A program made the position numbers and the translations under genes. The notes below the pieces were generated by a model that saw only the letters and a list, made by a program, of their open reading frames with translations, was not told the DNA's origin and ran no database searches. Below, piece after piece: positions 2,798 through 10,479 of a stretch of 64,000 nt of DNA (its first letter is position 1; every line of letters begins with the position of its first letter). The DNA is from Armatimonadota bacterium. GTDB taxonomy: Bacteria; Armatimonadota; SYMT01. The stretch covers positions 1,248,001 to 1,312,000 of the forward strand of contig JAWLHY010000001.1 of NCBI GenBank assembly GCA_041690135.1, given 5' to 3'.

Positions 2798-3055
2798 ATG
2801 CCCGTTCGACGCGCGAAACAGCCGGAGGCGGCGGAACCGGAGAGCCCGGTCGTCCTGCATAAGAATCTCACCGTCCTGACCACCACGGACCCCCTACTCC
2901 TCCGGGAGATCAAGGCGGATAAGAAGATCGGCCCCCACCTGATCGCGGAGCTTTCCGAGACCACCGTCATTCTCGCTCCCGGCTCGGAAGAGGCGGTGAC
3001 CCGCCAGTTGCTGAAGGCCGGTCACCTGCCGCAGATTCGGAAGGGGACGCCATGA
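2798..3055 (+). CDS. Small protein with a p8/Tfb5-like pattern, coupled to the next gene
   Basis: AAGGA RBS; ATGA overlap with 3052; resembles the C-terminal domain of the downstream protein. Confidence 0.75.
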   Translation: MPVRRAKQPEAAEPESPVVLHKNLTVLTTTDPLLLREIKADKKIGPHLIAELSETTVILAPGSEEAVTRQLLKAGHLPQIRKGTP

Positions 3056-5496
3056 GCCGGGACGACTTCTTCGATGAGGAGGATTTCCTGTTGGACGACG
3101 ACCTGGCGCCGGAGGAGATTCTGGATCTCCGGGCGGTGGCCGGAACGTCTGCCAACGAGCCGATGAGCGCGGAAGAGCGGGCGGAGTTGGCGGCGTTCTT
3201 CCACGGCTACAATGCCGAAGTCTTGAAGCGGATGGCGAACCTGTGGGCCGGGCCGCGCGCCGGCACTCGGAAAGAGCAGTGCGTCCAGGCGATGGTCGGG
3301 GTGCTGGCCGACCCGGCGAAACTTCGGGAGATGATCGGGCGGCTCACGCCATTCCAACGGGCCGGCCTGGGGCTCCTGATGTACCGTGGGGGCGTGGCGC
3401 CCTCCGTGGAATTCGCCGCCGAGTTGTTGGGCCTGGGACTTCCCTTTGAACGTGTGGGTCTCTACTACAACTATGGCTATGGCTATAACCGCGGTGGCTC
3501 CGGCATTGGGGCGTTAAGCGCGCTCATGGCCACGGGGCTGGTGCTGGACACCGGCATCGACGATCTTACCGGCACTTCCCGGCAAACGTGCTACTTCCGC
3601 CACACTTATGTAGCCGCGGTGACCACCTTCGGCCGGGTCGCCCCGCTCCTGACCGTGCAGGCGCCGGAGCCGCTGAAGGTGGAGCCCGTGGAGTTCACCG
3701 GCCACGGTCGCTTCCGGCGCCCGGCGGAGGCGGCGCTGCCGATGATCAGTCTGATCGATGCCCTTCGGAAGGAGAAGGAGATCCTCCTGACCAACCGCGG
3801 CCGGTTCTCGAAGTCGCTGATCAACCGGCTCGTCAAGCGCGTGGGATTGGACGCCCCAGCCGCCGCGGAAACCCAAACACCCCTGGAGGAGGCTACTTTC
3901 TTCTACCTCCAGCTTCTGATGTCCGGCCGCTTTTTCACCCCTCCAGGTGCGGGCGGCGAGATTCGGCTCTCCACCGTGGTGGATGATGCCATCGCTTCCC
4001 CTTACGAGATCCAGGTGTTGAACTGGGTGCGGGGCTACCGGTCGCTGAAGGGCTGGCATGAGTCCCTTCCCCCTACCGTGGCGCTGTATTCCGACAACGC
4101 GTTTTCGGCGAATTCGATCCACGCCTTCCGCGCCCTGGTGCTCTTGACGCTGGGCGCCCTGCCGGACCCGGAGCGGTGGTACGCTGTGCAGGCGTTTTCC
4201 GATGCACTCTACGCACGCGTCGGCGACCAGTTTTCCATCGCCTACGTCTATCCGTTCTACACCACGCAGCGCGATCCCACTAAGGCCGAACGGGAGCGCC
4301 AGGCTTACCTGCAGAAGCAGCATGCCAACTGGCAGCAGCGGGAAGAGGTTCTGCTTCGGAATATGCTGATCGGGCCCCTCTTCCATCTCGGTCTCGTCGA
4401 GCTTTCCTTCGCGGAAACCGACGACACGCGGCAGCGGCTGCGGTTCCGGCTGACGGACCTGGGGCGCACCGCACTTTACGATACGCTCCGGCCCGGTAGC
4501 CGCCCGATGACACCTGCGGCCGAGAGCCTCCCCTCGGAGCCTTGCTGGGTGGTACAGCCGAATTTCGAGGTGATCGCCTACCTCGATCGAGCCAGTCCGG
4601 CGCAGTTGGGTTTCCTGGGCCGGATCGCCGAGCGGAAATCACTCACCGGCGCGGTCGGAGTATATTCCATCACGCGCGAGTCGGTGTACCACTCGCTGGA
4701 AGCCGGCATGGCGGTAGAAGCTATTCTTGAGACGCTGCAGGCCGGCGCAAAGCACGATCTGCCGGAGGTGGTGGCGCGCAGCATCCGGGACTGGGCTGGC
4801 CGGCGCGAGCGGATCGCCGTATACGTGGACGCCTCCCTGCTGGAGTTTCCCGACCGCGAGAGTCGGGATGCGGAGTTGAGTCGGAAGTCGGGCCTGGGTC
4901 GGCCGGTCGGAGACCGGTTCGTGCTCGTGGAGAAGCAGGGCAGTGCGGCGAAGCCCGGCGTTGCGGTGGGGCGGACCGTGGACTATCATGCCGTCGCCAG
5001 CCGGTGCGTCCGCGTCTCCGAGGAGGGGCTGCTGGAGTTGATCCCGGAGAAGGCCGACCTCCTGGTGTCGCACGAATTGGATGCCATCGCGCGCCGGGTG
5101 GTGGGAAATTCCCACCAGTGGGTCCTGGACGCGAAATCCGTGGGGGAGGCGTCGCAGGCGGGGTTCACCGGGGAGGCCATTCTCTCTCTGCTCGGGCAGC
5201 GCAGCCAGGGGGGGATTCCGGCCATCTTGCGCGTCGCCATCTCCCGGTGGGCGCTGAAGCGGCGGTCCTCGAAGGTGCCGGCGCTGGGAAAGGTGACCCT
5301 CCTCCAGCTTCCGACGCTGGAAATTGCGGACGCTCTGGCCGGAAGCCGGCGCGCCGCTCCGTACCTCCAGGCACGCCTGGGCCCGCAGACCTTTCTGGTG
5401 CCTTCAGAGGCCGCGAGGCCGCTGGGTAAGCTGCTCGTCGAACTGGGGCTCGAGGCGACGGGCGCCTTCGAAAGCCTGGAGTGGTCTCCCGATTGA
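3052..5496 (+). CDS. Helicase-associated domain protein (Helicase_C_3, p52/Tfb2-like), no ATPase motifs seen
   Basis: VVQPNFEVIAY...YSITRESVYHSLEAG...LPEVVARSIRDW motif, with a second copy near the C-terminus. Confidence 0.85.
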   Translation: MSRDDFFDEEDFLLDDDLAPEEILDLRAVAGTSANEPMSAEERAELAAFFHGYNAEVLKRMANLWAGPRAGTRKEQCVQAMVGVLADPAKLREMIGRLTPFQRAGLGLLMYRGGVAPSVEFAAELLGLGLPFERVGLYYNYGYGYNRGGSGIGALSALMATGLVLDTGIDDLTGTSRQTCYFRHTYVAAVTTFGRVAPLLTVQAPEPLKVEPVEFTGHGRFRRPAEAALPMISLIDALRKEKEILLTNRGRFSKSLINRLVKRVGLDAPAAAETQTPLEEATFFYLQLLMSGRFFTPPGAGGEIRLSTVVDDAIASPYEIQVLNWVRGYRSLKGWHESLPPTVALYSDNAFSANSIHAFRALVLLTLGALPDPERWYAVQAFSDALYARVGDQFSIAYVYPFYTTQRDPTKAERERQAYLQKQHANWQQREEVLLRNMLIGPLFHLGLVELSFAETDDTRQRLRFRLTDLGRTALYDTLRPGSRPMTPAAESLPSEPCWVVQPNFEVIAYLDRASPAQLGFLGRIAERKSLTGAVGVYSITRESVYHSLEAGMAVEAILETLQAGAKHDLPEVVARSIRDWAGRRERIAVYVDASLLEFPDRESRDAELSRKSGLGRPVGDRFVLVEKQGSAAKPGVAVGRTVDYHAVASRCVRVSEEGLLELIPEKADLLVSHELDAIARRVVGNSHQWVLDAKSVGEASQAGFTGEAILSLLGQRSQGGIPAILRVAISRWALKRRSSKVPALGKVTLLQLPTLEIADALAGSRRAAPYLQARLGPQTFLVPSEAARPLGKLLVELGLEATGAFESLEWSPD

Positions 5497-5508: not shown

Positions 5509-6471
5509 CTAACCCGGCTGGTCGTCAATCGCGGGCTCGATGAGGACCAGCACCTCTCGCCCATCCTGTTCCCGACGGCTGACAACGAGGCGATAGGTCC
5601 GGTTGGCGGCCAGCGCCAGGGTTGAACGGATGGAAGAGGCGCCCCGTCCGTTTGCCCGGAGTTGATACGACCCGGCGCCGAGCGTGAGCGGGAGCGAGGT
5701 GCCGGGGGCGATCATCGCGGTACGCGTGCCCTGACCCTCGATCACCACGTCCACCGGGGCGGCGTCGTCATTGCGGATCATCACCACCGCGCGGGTGCCG
5801 TCGGGGCGCGCGAGCCCGCCCAGTGACGCATCGTTGCTCGGCACCGTGGTCTCCAGGGGGGCGGGAGCGGGAGCCCGCATCACCGTGACCGACTGCCGTG
5901 CGGGCCCGGACTGGCTGTAGACCACCGTGGGAGGGCTCGACCGCGGGTAGACCGGCTGGATAGGCACGGCGGTTGTCCGCGGTGGCGGGATAGGCCGGGG
6001 GCGCACGGTGACGACCGGAGTCTCGACGCGGGGCGTCGTCGAGCCACGTGTGTCGGTTGAGTCAGGCGTCCCGGGCCTGGGCACCTGAGCGTAGTGCTGG
6101 GGCATCGCTGCCGCCTGCGGAGAAACCAGTTGGGGATCGGTGGCCGGAGGCACGGGGAGTTGGACCGGTTGAGTAGCTGCGCTCTCAATGGTAGGCGTAC
6201 GGGCCGGTGGTGCGCTTGCCCGGCCAATCCAGAAACCCACGAGGCACGCGCAAATCGCCCCAGCCGCCCCGGCTCCCACGTAGAGCGCGGCGGGCCACTT
6301 TCGTTCCAGCGACCAGGAAAGAGTCGGCTGCCGGTCCAGGTCCCAGGATTGGGTACGGTCGTCCGGGTTCGGGGCACCCATCGGCATGAATTGGTGCTCC
6401 CCGCACGACCAGCAGCGGCTTTCGCCTTGATCGTTCAGACTCCCGCACCCGGCGCACGCTTTGCGAACCAC
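5509..6471 (-). CDS. Hypothetical membrane protein: zinc ribbon, TM helix, Pro-rich linker, beta-rich C-terminal domain
   Basis: CAGC...CWSC, one hydrophobic helix and a Pro/Thr-rich stretch; GTG start after GGAGG. Confidence 0.7.
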   Translation of the reverse strand: MVRKACAGCGSLNDQGESRCWSCGEHQFMPMGAPNPDDRTQSWDLDRQPTLSWSLERKWPAALYVGAGAAGAICACLVGFWIGRASAPPARTPTIESAATQPVQLPVPPATDPQLVSPQAAAMPQHYAQVPRPGTPDSTDTRGSTTPRVETPVVTVRPRPIPPPRTTAVPIQPVYPRSSPPTVVYSQSGPARQSVTVMRAPAPAPLETTVPSNDASLGGLARPDGTRAVVMIRNDDAAPVDVVIEGQGTRTAMIAPGTSLPLTLGAGSYQLRANGRGASSIRSTLALAANRTYRLVVSRREQDGREVLVLIEPAIDDQPG

Positions 6472-6712
6472 ACCAGCCCTCCGCTTCTGGGAGACCGATC
6501 GAGAGGCAACCCCTACCAACCCGGCCCGGCACCAGCCGGACCGGAGACCGAACCCGCGGCTACTGTCTCAGCTTACCGACGCTTGCGATGGTTCAAACTC
6601 TCCGTCTCACCTGTTGGAAGAACGGCATCGGCCACGAGTTCCATGCGCGAAAGGTTAAGCGCCGCGCTGCGTTGAAGTGATTGTAGCACGGACGGTAAAT
6701 CAGGAGACACGA

Positions 6713-9615: not shown

Positions 9616-10479
9616 ATGCAACCGAGAACGGCGAAGAAACCGGTAAAGTGGGGTACGGTCCTCGATCCGGACCTGAAGGATGAAGTTGCCCTGAACTGCG
9701 AGCAGCGGGGAATGACGGTGGCCCGTTTCACGGAAGGGGCCCTCCGGCAGGCGCTGGGCGGAACGCTGCTGGATGAGTTCTCCAGCGACACCCCCATCGT
9801 GGTTTCCCAAACCCGCGACTCGCCGCGCCCGGGGGAGCTTTTCAGCATCGCGCTCCTTTCGGAACACTGGGGCACCTCGCGCCTGCGGGTCCTCCCGGGC
9901 AGCCAGCAGCTCTTCGAAACTGAAGGGGAGCCGATATCCGAGCTCCGCAGTTCGTTCATTTCGGTCGGCTCCCCCAAACTGAACCTGGTCACCCGCTGGT
10001 TGGACCACGTGGGTTTCGACTCCCGCCATTGGGCGGCCCGTTACCGTCTGGAGCACTGCGATTGCGAGGAGCGGGCCGAGGGAATGGACCAGGGCCAGGA
10101 AGCGAGCTGGCACCTGCGGACACGCGTTGACGAGGCACTCCACCGCCGGCCGTACACCGGGGAAAGTATCGCGGAGGCGTTCTGGGACGACTGGGGCATT
10201 ATCCGCCTTCAGGAGAACCCCCGCTCCCGCGATGCACGGGGTCGCGTGCTGGTCCTGGCGGGCCTCAGCTACATGGCCACCTCCACCTGTGTGATGATGG
10301 CCACCTCGCGCCGTTTCTCCGCGGAAATCCGTCGCCAGTTGGGAGTGAGCACCACGGAGCCCTTGCCGGAGTTCGAGGCGATCGTGCACTTCATCTACGT
10401 GCAAGGCGTTCCGCAACTCGTCGATCCGCTGCGAGGTTCCGTCCGTCGGATCACGCCCGAGGGGCCCGTGACGGATTAG
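9616..10479 (+). CDS. Putative regulator: ribbon-helix-helix-like N-terminus plus an alpha/beta C-terminal domain
   Basis: KWGTVLDPDLKDEVALNCEQRGMTVARFTEGALRQAL; C-terminal ISVGSPKLNLVT...ENP...VLVLAG. Confidence 0.65.
   Translation: MQPRTAKKPVKWGTVLDPDLKDEVALNCEQRGMTVARFTEGALRQALGGTLLDEFSSDTPIVVSQTRDSPRPGELFSIALLSEHWGTSRLRVLPGSQQLFETEGEPISELRSSFISVGSPKLNLVTRWLDHVGFDSRHWAARYRLEHCDCEERAEGMDQGQEASWHLRTRVDEALHRRPYTGESIAEAFWDDWGIIRLQENPRSRDARGRVLVLAGLSYMATSTCVMMATSRRFSAEIRRQLGVSTTEPLPEFEAIVHFIYVQGVPQLVDPLRGSVRRITPEGPVTD

Follow-up and report, generated by a model that had tools for sequence, protein, structure and literature searches.

A p52-like and p8-like gene pair in a bacterium, a probable docking module for an XPB encoded elsewhere in the genome

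In the human repair and transcription factor TFIIH the DNA motor XPB is held and tuned by two proteins, p52 and p8. What, then, is the role of a p8-like gene that adjoins a p52-like gene in a member of the bacterial phylum Armatimonadota, at a locus where XPB itself is not adjacent? We address this question for a window of 64,000 nucleotides of contig JAWLHY010000001.1, which is the whole stretch of DNA analysed. Our answer is that the pair encodes a p52-like scaffold together with a small p8-like protein, and that the two likely form a joint docking and regulatory module for an XPB encoded elsewhere, a reading to which we give a probability of about two in three. No description of bacterial p52 or p8 relatives was found in the literature within our reach; subscription papers and supplements, which lay outside it, may mention them.

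Both genes lie on the forward strand. The small open reading frame (2798-3055) encodes 85 amino acids and the large one (3052-5496) encodes 814; they share an ATGA start/stop overlap (3052-3055), through which they are likely translationally coupled. The frames, coordinates, overlap and peptides reported in the initial annotation are all present in the sequence. Shine-Dalgarno-like words precede both genes on the same strand: AAGGA, presumably functioning as such, nine bases upstream of the small ATG (2784-2788), and GAAGGGGA for the large frame (3040-3047). GC content by codon position is of the coding type in the small (0.69/0.44/0.82) and in the large frame (0.69/0.47/0.82). A scan of 2560-2830 returned no sigma-70-type promoter site, and the genes flanking the pair in the window are metabolic or of unknown kind and unrelated to the module. 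The small frame is a real gene and not a chance frame, because its conserved but unannotated family counts 357 stand-alone relatives (E ≤ 0.001, among 1546 candidates) and 33 of 34 related loci have a homologue next to the large gene; these loci are a biased sample, because the alignment scan was based on one peptide pattern. No other stand-alone copy turned up in its own genome.

The large protein is related to p52 over its full length and in addition carries a second clutch and p8-fold module. It contains Helicase_C_3, as had been annotated from the start (PF13625, E 3e-19, 69.6 bits, cut-off 34.2, in two stretches). Its structure model (pLDDT 88, pTM 0.79) retrieves from the PDB by Foldseek exclusively p52/Tfb2 chains (20 of 20 matches at E ≤ 0.001, best 2e-8), and residues 107-638 run collinear with p52 18-453 (VIA; Z 15.3, rmsd 13.7, 340 aligned). 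The domain order of p52 is kept, with an N-terminal helical/winged-helix half followed by a clutch and a C-terminal p8-fold domain. The N-terminal and middle helical/winged-helix region (residues ~45-480; 3184-4491, forward strand, as for all domains of this protein) aligns to the N-terminal half of p52 (model residues 112-478 on 6tru_D 15-318: Z 10.3, rmsd 4.9, 166 aligned). Clutch 1 (residues ~497-590; 4540-4821), the most conserved segment and predicted XPB-docking domain, superimposes on the N-terminal domain of human XPB (Z 16.6, rmsd 1.9, 92 aligned). A short p8-fold-like domain (residues ~591-632; 4822-4947) takes the position of the p52 C-terminal domain and matches the small family at 78.8% by hhalign. 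Clutch 2 (residues ~652-740; 5005-5271) is a diverged copy of clutch 1 (hhalign 98.2%), forms the second PF13625 match (E 5e-6) and does not figure among the contacts given for the predicted XPB interface. The protein then has a C-terminal p8-fold domain (residues ~745-802; 5284-5457), of which model residues 743-799 align with Tfb5 (3dom_B: Z 5.7, rmsd 2.4, 56 aligned). A profile of the large family finds XPB (1e-4), p52 (7e-4) and Tfb2 (3e-3) in the PDB. Searches with the single sequence returned nothing from the PDB and none of 386 candidates among genome contigs, and the family was absent from 592 viral-contig candidates. Scores for the curated p52/Tfb2 (GTF2H4) families stay under their cut-offs (PF03849, 18.9 of 34.5 bits; TIGR00625, 17.8 of 320.7 bits); a relative of the large protein (L054) passes PF03849 at 46.4 bits.

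For the small protein, the initial assignment to Tfb5 holds at the level of profiles and fold, while the Pfam Tfb5 model does not match. The conserved core comprises residues 19-84 (2852-3049, forward strand), and the first ~18 residues are modelled with low confidence. The secondary structure of the model (E25-28 H32-40 E48-51 E56-59 H64-73 E79-82) follows the ~70-residue beta-alpha-beta-beta-alpha layout of p8 (GTF2H5). Tfb5 chains superimpose with an rmsd of 2.3-2.4 over 48-49 columns and take Foldseek ranks 2, 7, 8 and 13; this is a common alpha/beta fold, and the Z of 5.9-6.0 for p8 chains ties with unrelated proteins reaching up to 6.8. The fold is compatible with p8 by Foldseek and by profile, and the objection that the small protein might have an unrelated fold did not arise. 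When a family profile built from 142 sequences was compared with 177,635 PDB sequences, five Tfb5 entries came first (E 0.005-0.007, yeast Tfb5 best, next match 0.94); the match spans 49 residues and is suggestive, short of a strict cut-off. With 41 sequences in the profile, Tfb5 appeared at E ~0.1. Pfam Tfb5 (PF06331) and Tfb2_C have no match in the whole genome at E ≤ 10, Pfam Tfb5 matches none of 41 small-family members, and single-sequence searches of PDB, Pfam and NCBIfam gave nothing meaningful.

The small protein had also been said to resemble the C-terminus of the large one. BLASTP does not see this likeness (best E 3.2), whereas hhalign does (97.2%, E 3e-11, score 50, 55 columns). The small profile scores comparably with the second domain of bacterial XPB (97.1%, score 52) and with the domain that follows the clutch in single-clutch paralogues (96.1%, score 60), and nothing else is closer to it than these three. 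Since neither the second XPB domain nor the large C-terminus stands nearer to the small domain than the other, "p8-like" is used here for a fold family and a role, not for proven orthology. A separate origin, in which the small gene arose by fission of a bacterial protein with clutch and p8-fold domain, apart from eukaryotic p8, and may work like p8 without being its orthologue, is a real, if lesser, possibility. It is favoured by these near-equal distances, by a C-terminal G-x-x-P ending that the small family shares with the fused p8-fold domains and that falls outside the Tfb5 match, and by the silence of Pfam Tfb5. Against it, Tfb5 is retrieved from the PDB by the stand-alone family profile only, the three fused-domain profiles (35, 37 and 10 sequences) finding neither Tfb5 nor p52 at E ≤ 10; moreover, like p8, the small protein stands alone and is coupled to a p52 relative of full length. 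Such an origin is compatible with the docking mechanism and alters the evolutionary claim only.

The initial annotation placed XPB elsewhere in the genome, and it is indeed found on contig C13, as the only XPB that bears the N-terminal domain; it retains intact Walker A, DEVH, RED and motif VI words. This XPB adjoins a second p52-like gene with a single clutch, and the two p52-like proteins have clutches of one family (hhalign 98.3%). A WYL tail first read at the end of the C13 single-clutch protein was left unconfirmed (no Pfam match, hhalign 42%), and an orthology of this gene with the extra clutch gene of Chloroflexota clusters found no direct support (hhalign 12.9%), the gene set alone being alike.

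An interface between the pair and the genome's own XPB is predicted. The complex of large residues 490-803, the small protein and XPB, with the XPB interface scored, passes at 0.65 against 0.00 for the best of three controls; runs agree in at least 93% of contacts and partner pLDDT is at least 74. The pass mark is reached by 116 of 157 solved complexes and by 2 of 215 mismatched pairs, a calibration set unlike the present job with its three chains and custom alignments. Contacts are predicted between clutch 1 (residues 500-584) and both the N-terminal domain of XPB and its second (C-terminal) RecA domain, and those of the small chain with XPB vanish when the large chain is replaced. PMC7708078 and PMC6422496 describe the same arrangement in TFIIH, where the clutch binds the N-terminal domain of XPB and the second RecA domain, and p8 touches XPB. 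The predicted geometry is that of p52/p8 in TFIIH, and the pass may stem from likeness to solved TFIIH.

In the docking module that we favour, clutch 1 would pack on the N-terminal domain and second RecA domain of XPB, and the small protein would touch XPB only with the large protein present. By analogy, the small protein would be held by one of the p8-fold domains of its large partner, most probably that which follows clutch 1, and the ring of both proteins would set the ATPase and translocase rate of XPB; that the pair activates XPB is suggested by TFIIH biochemistry. Because XPB already adjoins a single-clutch p52-like gene, the pair would be an alternative or additional adaptor. The spare clutch 2 and C-terminal domain would be free for another clutch, putatively that of the single-clutch paralogue, of a second XPB or of the protein itself. 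In the cell the pair would most probably serve to open DNA during repair or a stress response. None of the three outcomes that would have counted against the original proposal of a p52-p8-like module for a distant XPB came about, namely an unrelated small fold, a pair without predicted interface, or genomes with the pair but no XPB. The proposal is supported with four corrections: the duplication of the clutch module, the neighbour that XPB has of its own, the use of "p8-like" for fold family and role, and activation as an extrapolation from TFIIH biochemistry.

Co-occurrence fits the proposed link between pair and XPB. In the phylum sample, where 30 of 301 genomes have XPB, it is present in all 11 that carry the small gene, kin not being independent, and XPB accompanies all 34 other loci: it lies within the locus in 26 and elsewhere in the remaining eight genomes (seven over the cut-off, one as a fragment). 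In 19 of the 30 XPB genomes of the phylum sample no stand-alone small gene was seen, and XPB apparently does not depend on it. Among neighbour families recurring in at least 3 of 58 loci (15 of 28 representatives scanned) there was no p34-, p44-, p62- or XPD-like gene, and beyond the module no neighbour family recurs across phyla. In quick trees of the large protein and of XPB, from which eukaryotic rows were left out, the large protein falls together with four proteins of other phyla whose genes are linked to XPB in operons (SH-aLRT 98), and the XPBs of these four lie far from that of the present genome. The pair may have come without, or lost, its own XPB and have no productive link to the resident one, which is served by its own neighbour; it would then be drifting or bind DNA in a role independent of XPB, in which the two clutches might pair with each other. 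Long end branches of the detached copies (0.75-2.15; 1.07 in the window's protein against 0.48-0.58 in its four operon-linked relatives) would agree with this, as would the failure to find the pair in two of six other genomes of the family and the predicted interface residues, whose conservation does not exceed that of the remaining residues in the same domains (permutation p 0.64, 0.58, 0.30, 0.88). We consider it unlikely, however: the two frames are undamaged and coupled, the other four of these six genomes and one more family retain the detached pair, no genome among those checked has the pair without XPB, and in the model clutch 1 docks on the resident XPB where controls score 0.00.

That the pair is a brake or decoy, binding the resident XPB at the surface used by the single-clutch partner and displacing that partner or slowing the motor, is quite improbable, even though the shared clutch family could imply competition for one XPB N-terminal domain, the separate locus could permit separate regulation and p52/p8, which control the XPB ATPase, also limit its DNA-stimulated rate (PMC7708078), since in 5 of 5 checked genomes with an XPB-small-large operon PF13625 occurs outside XPB in the double-clutch gene alone, so that the family is no mere decoy, and since in 11 loci (9 Chloroflexota, L053 and L079) both p52-like kinds cluster with XPB and the small gene, which fits co-operation.

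The docking module can be set against known systems. With XPB-p52-p8 of TFIIH (Ssl2-Tfb2-Tfb5; PDB 6NMI, 6TRS, 3DOM) it shares the collinear p52 domain order, a stand-alone p8-fold protein and, in the model, the clutch-to-XPB contacts with the small protein touching XPB. It differs in that identity in structural alignments is 11-20%, the Pfam/TIGR cut-offs for Tfb2 and Tfb5 are not reached, an extra C-terminal clutch plus p8-fold module is present, the recurring neighbours include no p34-, p44- or XPD-like gene, and two p52-like paralogues occur in this one genome. On a broader and rather doubtful view, bacteria would have a TFIIH-like modular motor of one XPB, two p52-like adaptors and one p8, predating or paralleling the eukaryotic one, with four genes that form one cluster in other phyla and are split into two loci here. 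The second clutch would provide a bridge to either the single-clutch paralogue or another XPB, giving a larger DNA-opening machine without eukaryotic equivalent; the XPB N-terminal clutch plus damage-recognition-like domain, the p52 clutch plus C-terminal domain, and p8 would all go back to a single unit of two domains in bacteria.

Should the pair work in the predicted way, assays of bacterial XPB to date have lacked its regulators, eukaryotes did not invent the XPB-p52-p8 module, and a small bacterial model becomes available for the p8/p52 interfaces damaged in trichothiodystrophy. The pair is a testable lead on the role of XPB in bacteria, and its being kept apart from an XPB that adjoins a second p52-like paralogue points to exchangeable adaptors. 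The archaeal XPB-Bax1 helicase-nuclease likewise has an XPB with a dedicated partner gene (PMC13024598); Bax1 is a nuclease, whereas the two proteins of the pair matched no nuclease family. The "helicase-associated domain" PF13625 proteins beside bacterial XPB (NF045503), such as the C13 gene, have the same clutch family, a p8-fold domain after the clutch and the link to XPB. The window's gene has two clutches and a coupled small gene, whereas the single-clutch genes that were examined carry just one clutch, with no small gene at their side; searchable papers hold no description of the function of either type. Unlike the WYL-fused double-clutch proteins (L053, L054, L093, and Deinococcus loci with a WYL-like tail), the window's large protein has no WYL match at E ≤ 1 and ends 13 residues past its C-terminal p8-fold domain, yet it shares with them the same tree clan and the same upstream small gene.

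The two genes analyzed here represent a real, apparently undescribed bacterial variant of the XPB-p52-p8 sub-module of TFIIH, in a detached, double-clutch and WYL-less form. Searches of the open literature found no description of bacterial p52 or p8 relatives. As initially annotated, a small ORF of 85 aa (2798-3055, + strand) and a large ORF of 814 aa (3052-5496, + strand) are joined by an ATGA overlap; Shine-Dalgarno-like words and a coding-type GC skew by codon position are present for both. On one side of the pair is a divergent xylose-isomerase-like gene; on the other, a convergent gene of no clear family. The divergent intergenic region upstream holds one terminator-like hairpin (2630-2646, +; shuffles expect 0.2). 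A proline-rich ORF convergent with the large gene (5509-6519, - strand) has an N-terminal CxxC...CxxC motif, a predicted-looking membrane segment and only a borderline DUF4397 match. The start of a 287-aa ORF without Pfam match (9616-10479, + strand) appears ribbon-helix-helix-like by eye.

We show here that the large protein is a full-length relative of p52 with an additional clutch and p8-fold module behind it, and without a WYL domain. Pfam finds the clutch domain Helicase_C_3 (PF13625) above cut-off and Tfb2 weakly, below cut-off, and NCBIfam gives weak matches to XPB and tfb2. A search of 1.84 billion representatives recovers 1542 relatives at E<=0.001, and a profile built on 113 near-full-length, aligned relatives retrieves XPB, p52 and Tfb2 from the PDB. 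With the AlphaFold2 model (pLDDT 88, pTM 0.79), 20 of the 20 Foldseek matches at E<=0.001 are p52/Tfb2 chains. In VIA, residues 107-638 superpose onto p52 18-453 (Z 15.3), with an rmsd of 13.7 because the domain angles differ. Clutch 1 fits the N-terminal domain of XPB (Z 16.6, rmsd 1.9), and Tfb5 is matched by residues 743-799 (Z 5.7, rmsd 2.4). Profile comparison identifies a second clutch (98.2% against clutch 1) and two p8-fold domains inside the protein, and no WYL domain was found in it. The Pfam, PDB-profile, structural and profile-comparison results thus lead to the assignment given. Conservation along the protein is highest in clutch 1 (0.57 vs 0.37-0.45).

The small protein is likely a distant p8 relative that works like p8, not a filed PF06331 member. 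Its suspected resemblance to the C-terminus of the large protein is real at the profile level, since the two family profiles align with 97.2% probability over 55 columns; BLASTP between the two proteins gives no link. A single-sequence search finds one relative. Homologues were found directly adjoining the large gene in related loci, and from 1546 candidates their profile picks out 357 stand-alone proteins. Among the 120 small-family matches listed, none carries a Pfam label. The Tfb5 identity proposed earlier stands in part: a 142-sequence family profile ranks Tfb5 first with five sequences (E 0.005-0.007, next match 0.94), but Pfam Tfb5 and Tfb2_C match nowhere in the genome, and the family is equally near to two other domains: the second domain of bacterial XPB, which is damage-recognition-like (97.1%; residues ~105-168 of this genome's XPB, locus L013), and the domain behind the clutch in single-clutch p52-like paralogues (96.1%). 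The XPB N-terminal clutch and second domain therefore look like the same two-domain unit as the p52 clutch and C-terminal domain. With a 41-sequence profile, Tfb5 appears at E ~0.1, below a designed repeat protein, and none of three fused p8-fold domain profiles retrieves Tfb5 or p52. With the single-sequence model (pLDDT 71.5), the Tfb5 chains that Foldseek ranks at 2, 7, 8 and 13 all have E above 0.001. In a wide structural search, p8 chains (Z 5.9-6.0) score level with small alpha/beta domains from unrelated proteins (top 6.8), thus the fold alone cannot decide p8 kinship. An independent origin of the small gene is a serious minority view, which concerns ancestry only.

The initial annotation placed the XPB partner elsewhere in the genome, and this proved correct: one XPB above the family cut-off, with intact motif words, lies on contig C13 (L013:6461-8218, -) and not beside the pair. 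Immediately upstream of it is a single-clutch p52-like gene of 683 aa (L013:8215-10266, -); no small gene occurs there, and the window copy is the only stand-alone one in the genome. The 683-aa protein has a post-clutch p8-fold domain and a weakly WYL-like tail (hhalign 42%, no Pfam match). A second, shorter XPB/Rad25-like helicase (L015, contig C4, 55369-56478, 461-aa frame) scores well below the cut-off of the bacterial XPB family NF045503 and has no Helicase_C_3 match.

Gene coupling and co-occurrence with XPB extend to other genomes. Among 34 loci with the large family, a sample from a genome-wide scan, the small gene adjoins the large gene in 33 (31 upstream, 2 downstream), the 34th being cut by a contig end. 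XPB lies in the same stretch in 26, including one cut XPB and one on the opposite strand, and elsewhere in all eight other genomes (seven above the family cut-off, one fragment at a contig end). In the phylum, a stand-alone small gene occurs in 11 of 301 genomes, which fall into five families and are not independent (20 candidates scored per genome). All 11 carry XPB, present in 30 of the 301, and a large-family gene beside the small gene; XPB is adjacent in five and on another contig in six, two of these on short contigs. No pair-carrying genome of either set lacks XPB, which in one is a fragment. In five of five operon genomes checked, the double-clutch gene is the sole PF13625 gene besides XPB, with the proviso that Pfam can miss divergent clutch genes. 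The main caution comes from quick trees: the large protein groups with four operon-linked proteins of other phyla (SH-aLRT 98), its family's own copies coming next (94), while the C13 XPB joins the family's XPBs (99), distant from those of the four operons. Therefore the pair has probably not shared its whole evolutionary history with the resident XPB. An uncoupled orphan pair is unlikely.

Docking of the pair on the resident XPB is predicted. Large residues 490-803, the small core and XPB 3-566, each entered as an alignment with XPB scored, reach 0.65 (runs 0.65, 0.63, 0.66) vs 0.00 for the best of three controls, large-chain replacement included; the runs share at least 93% of contacts, with partner pLDDT at least 74. 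In calibration, 116 of 157 solved complexes and 2 of 215 mismatched pairs passed, figures that apply only roughly to a three-chain job. On the XPB side the predicted contacts fall in the N-terminal domain and the C-terminal RecA region, and on the partner side in clutch 1 (500-584) and at seven residues of the small protein; neither clutch 2 nor either fused p8-fold domain is among the named XPB contacts. This predicted arrangement matches TFIIH, where, according to PMC7708078 and PMC6422496, the p52 clutch lies against two parts of XPB, the N-terminal domain and the second helicase domain, with p8 enlarging the contact. Because of this match, the score may reflect resemblance to solved structures instead of binding by the window's copy. 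Interface residues are no more conserved than their surroundings.

We give a probability of about two thirds to a p52-p8-like clamp: the pair would bind the resident XPB in trans and control how fast it hydrolyses ATP and translocates. On fungal XPB, p52 and then p8 act in this way (PMC7708078). The evidence establishes homology, gene coupling and co-occurrence, and docking is a prediction; the pairing of the small with the large protein, the direction of the effect, what clutch 2 is used for and the role in the cell are what we infer. A brake or decoy is improbable.

The pair is present in four of six other genomes of the family, and the split layout (single-clutch gene with XPB, small with double-clutch gene) is complete in two, G021 and G086. 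G086 also has a pair of double-clutch genes in tandem, separated by a single small gene (L051:6105-11184, -). Nine Chloroflexota loci (L067, L068, L070, L071, L075, L076, L080, L081, L088), L053 and L079 have both kinds of clutch gene in one cluster together with XPB and the small gene. The nine carry a further divergent clutch gene upstream of XPB (about 570-600 aa, no Pfam match, clutch hhalign 98.4%), itself preceded by a conserved gene of ~470-500 aa without Pfam or clear match to module domains, possibly making a five-gene cluster. A SWIM zinc finger and TPR gene lies near the pair in three Chloroflexota loci (L069:9545-11437, -; L073; L080). In two Gammaproteobacteria loci the small gene is downstream of the large gene (L063:7253-7552, L064:7833-8483), and in L063 the last domain of the large gene falls into another reading frame, through a split or a sequencing frameshift; split large genes also occur in L072 and L082. 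Upstream of the small-large-XPB operon in L055 (9469-13632, +) lies a DnaB helicase with two LAGLIDADG-type inteins, with a homologue in L054 and L056.
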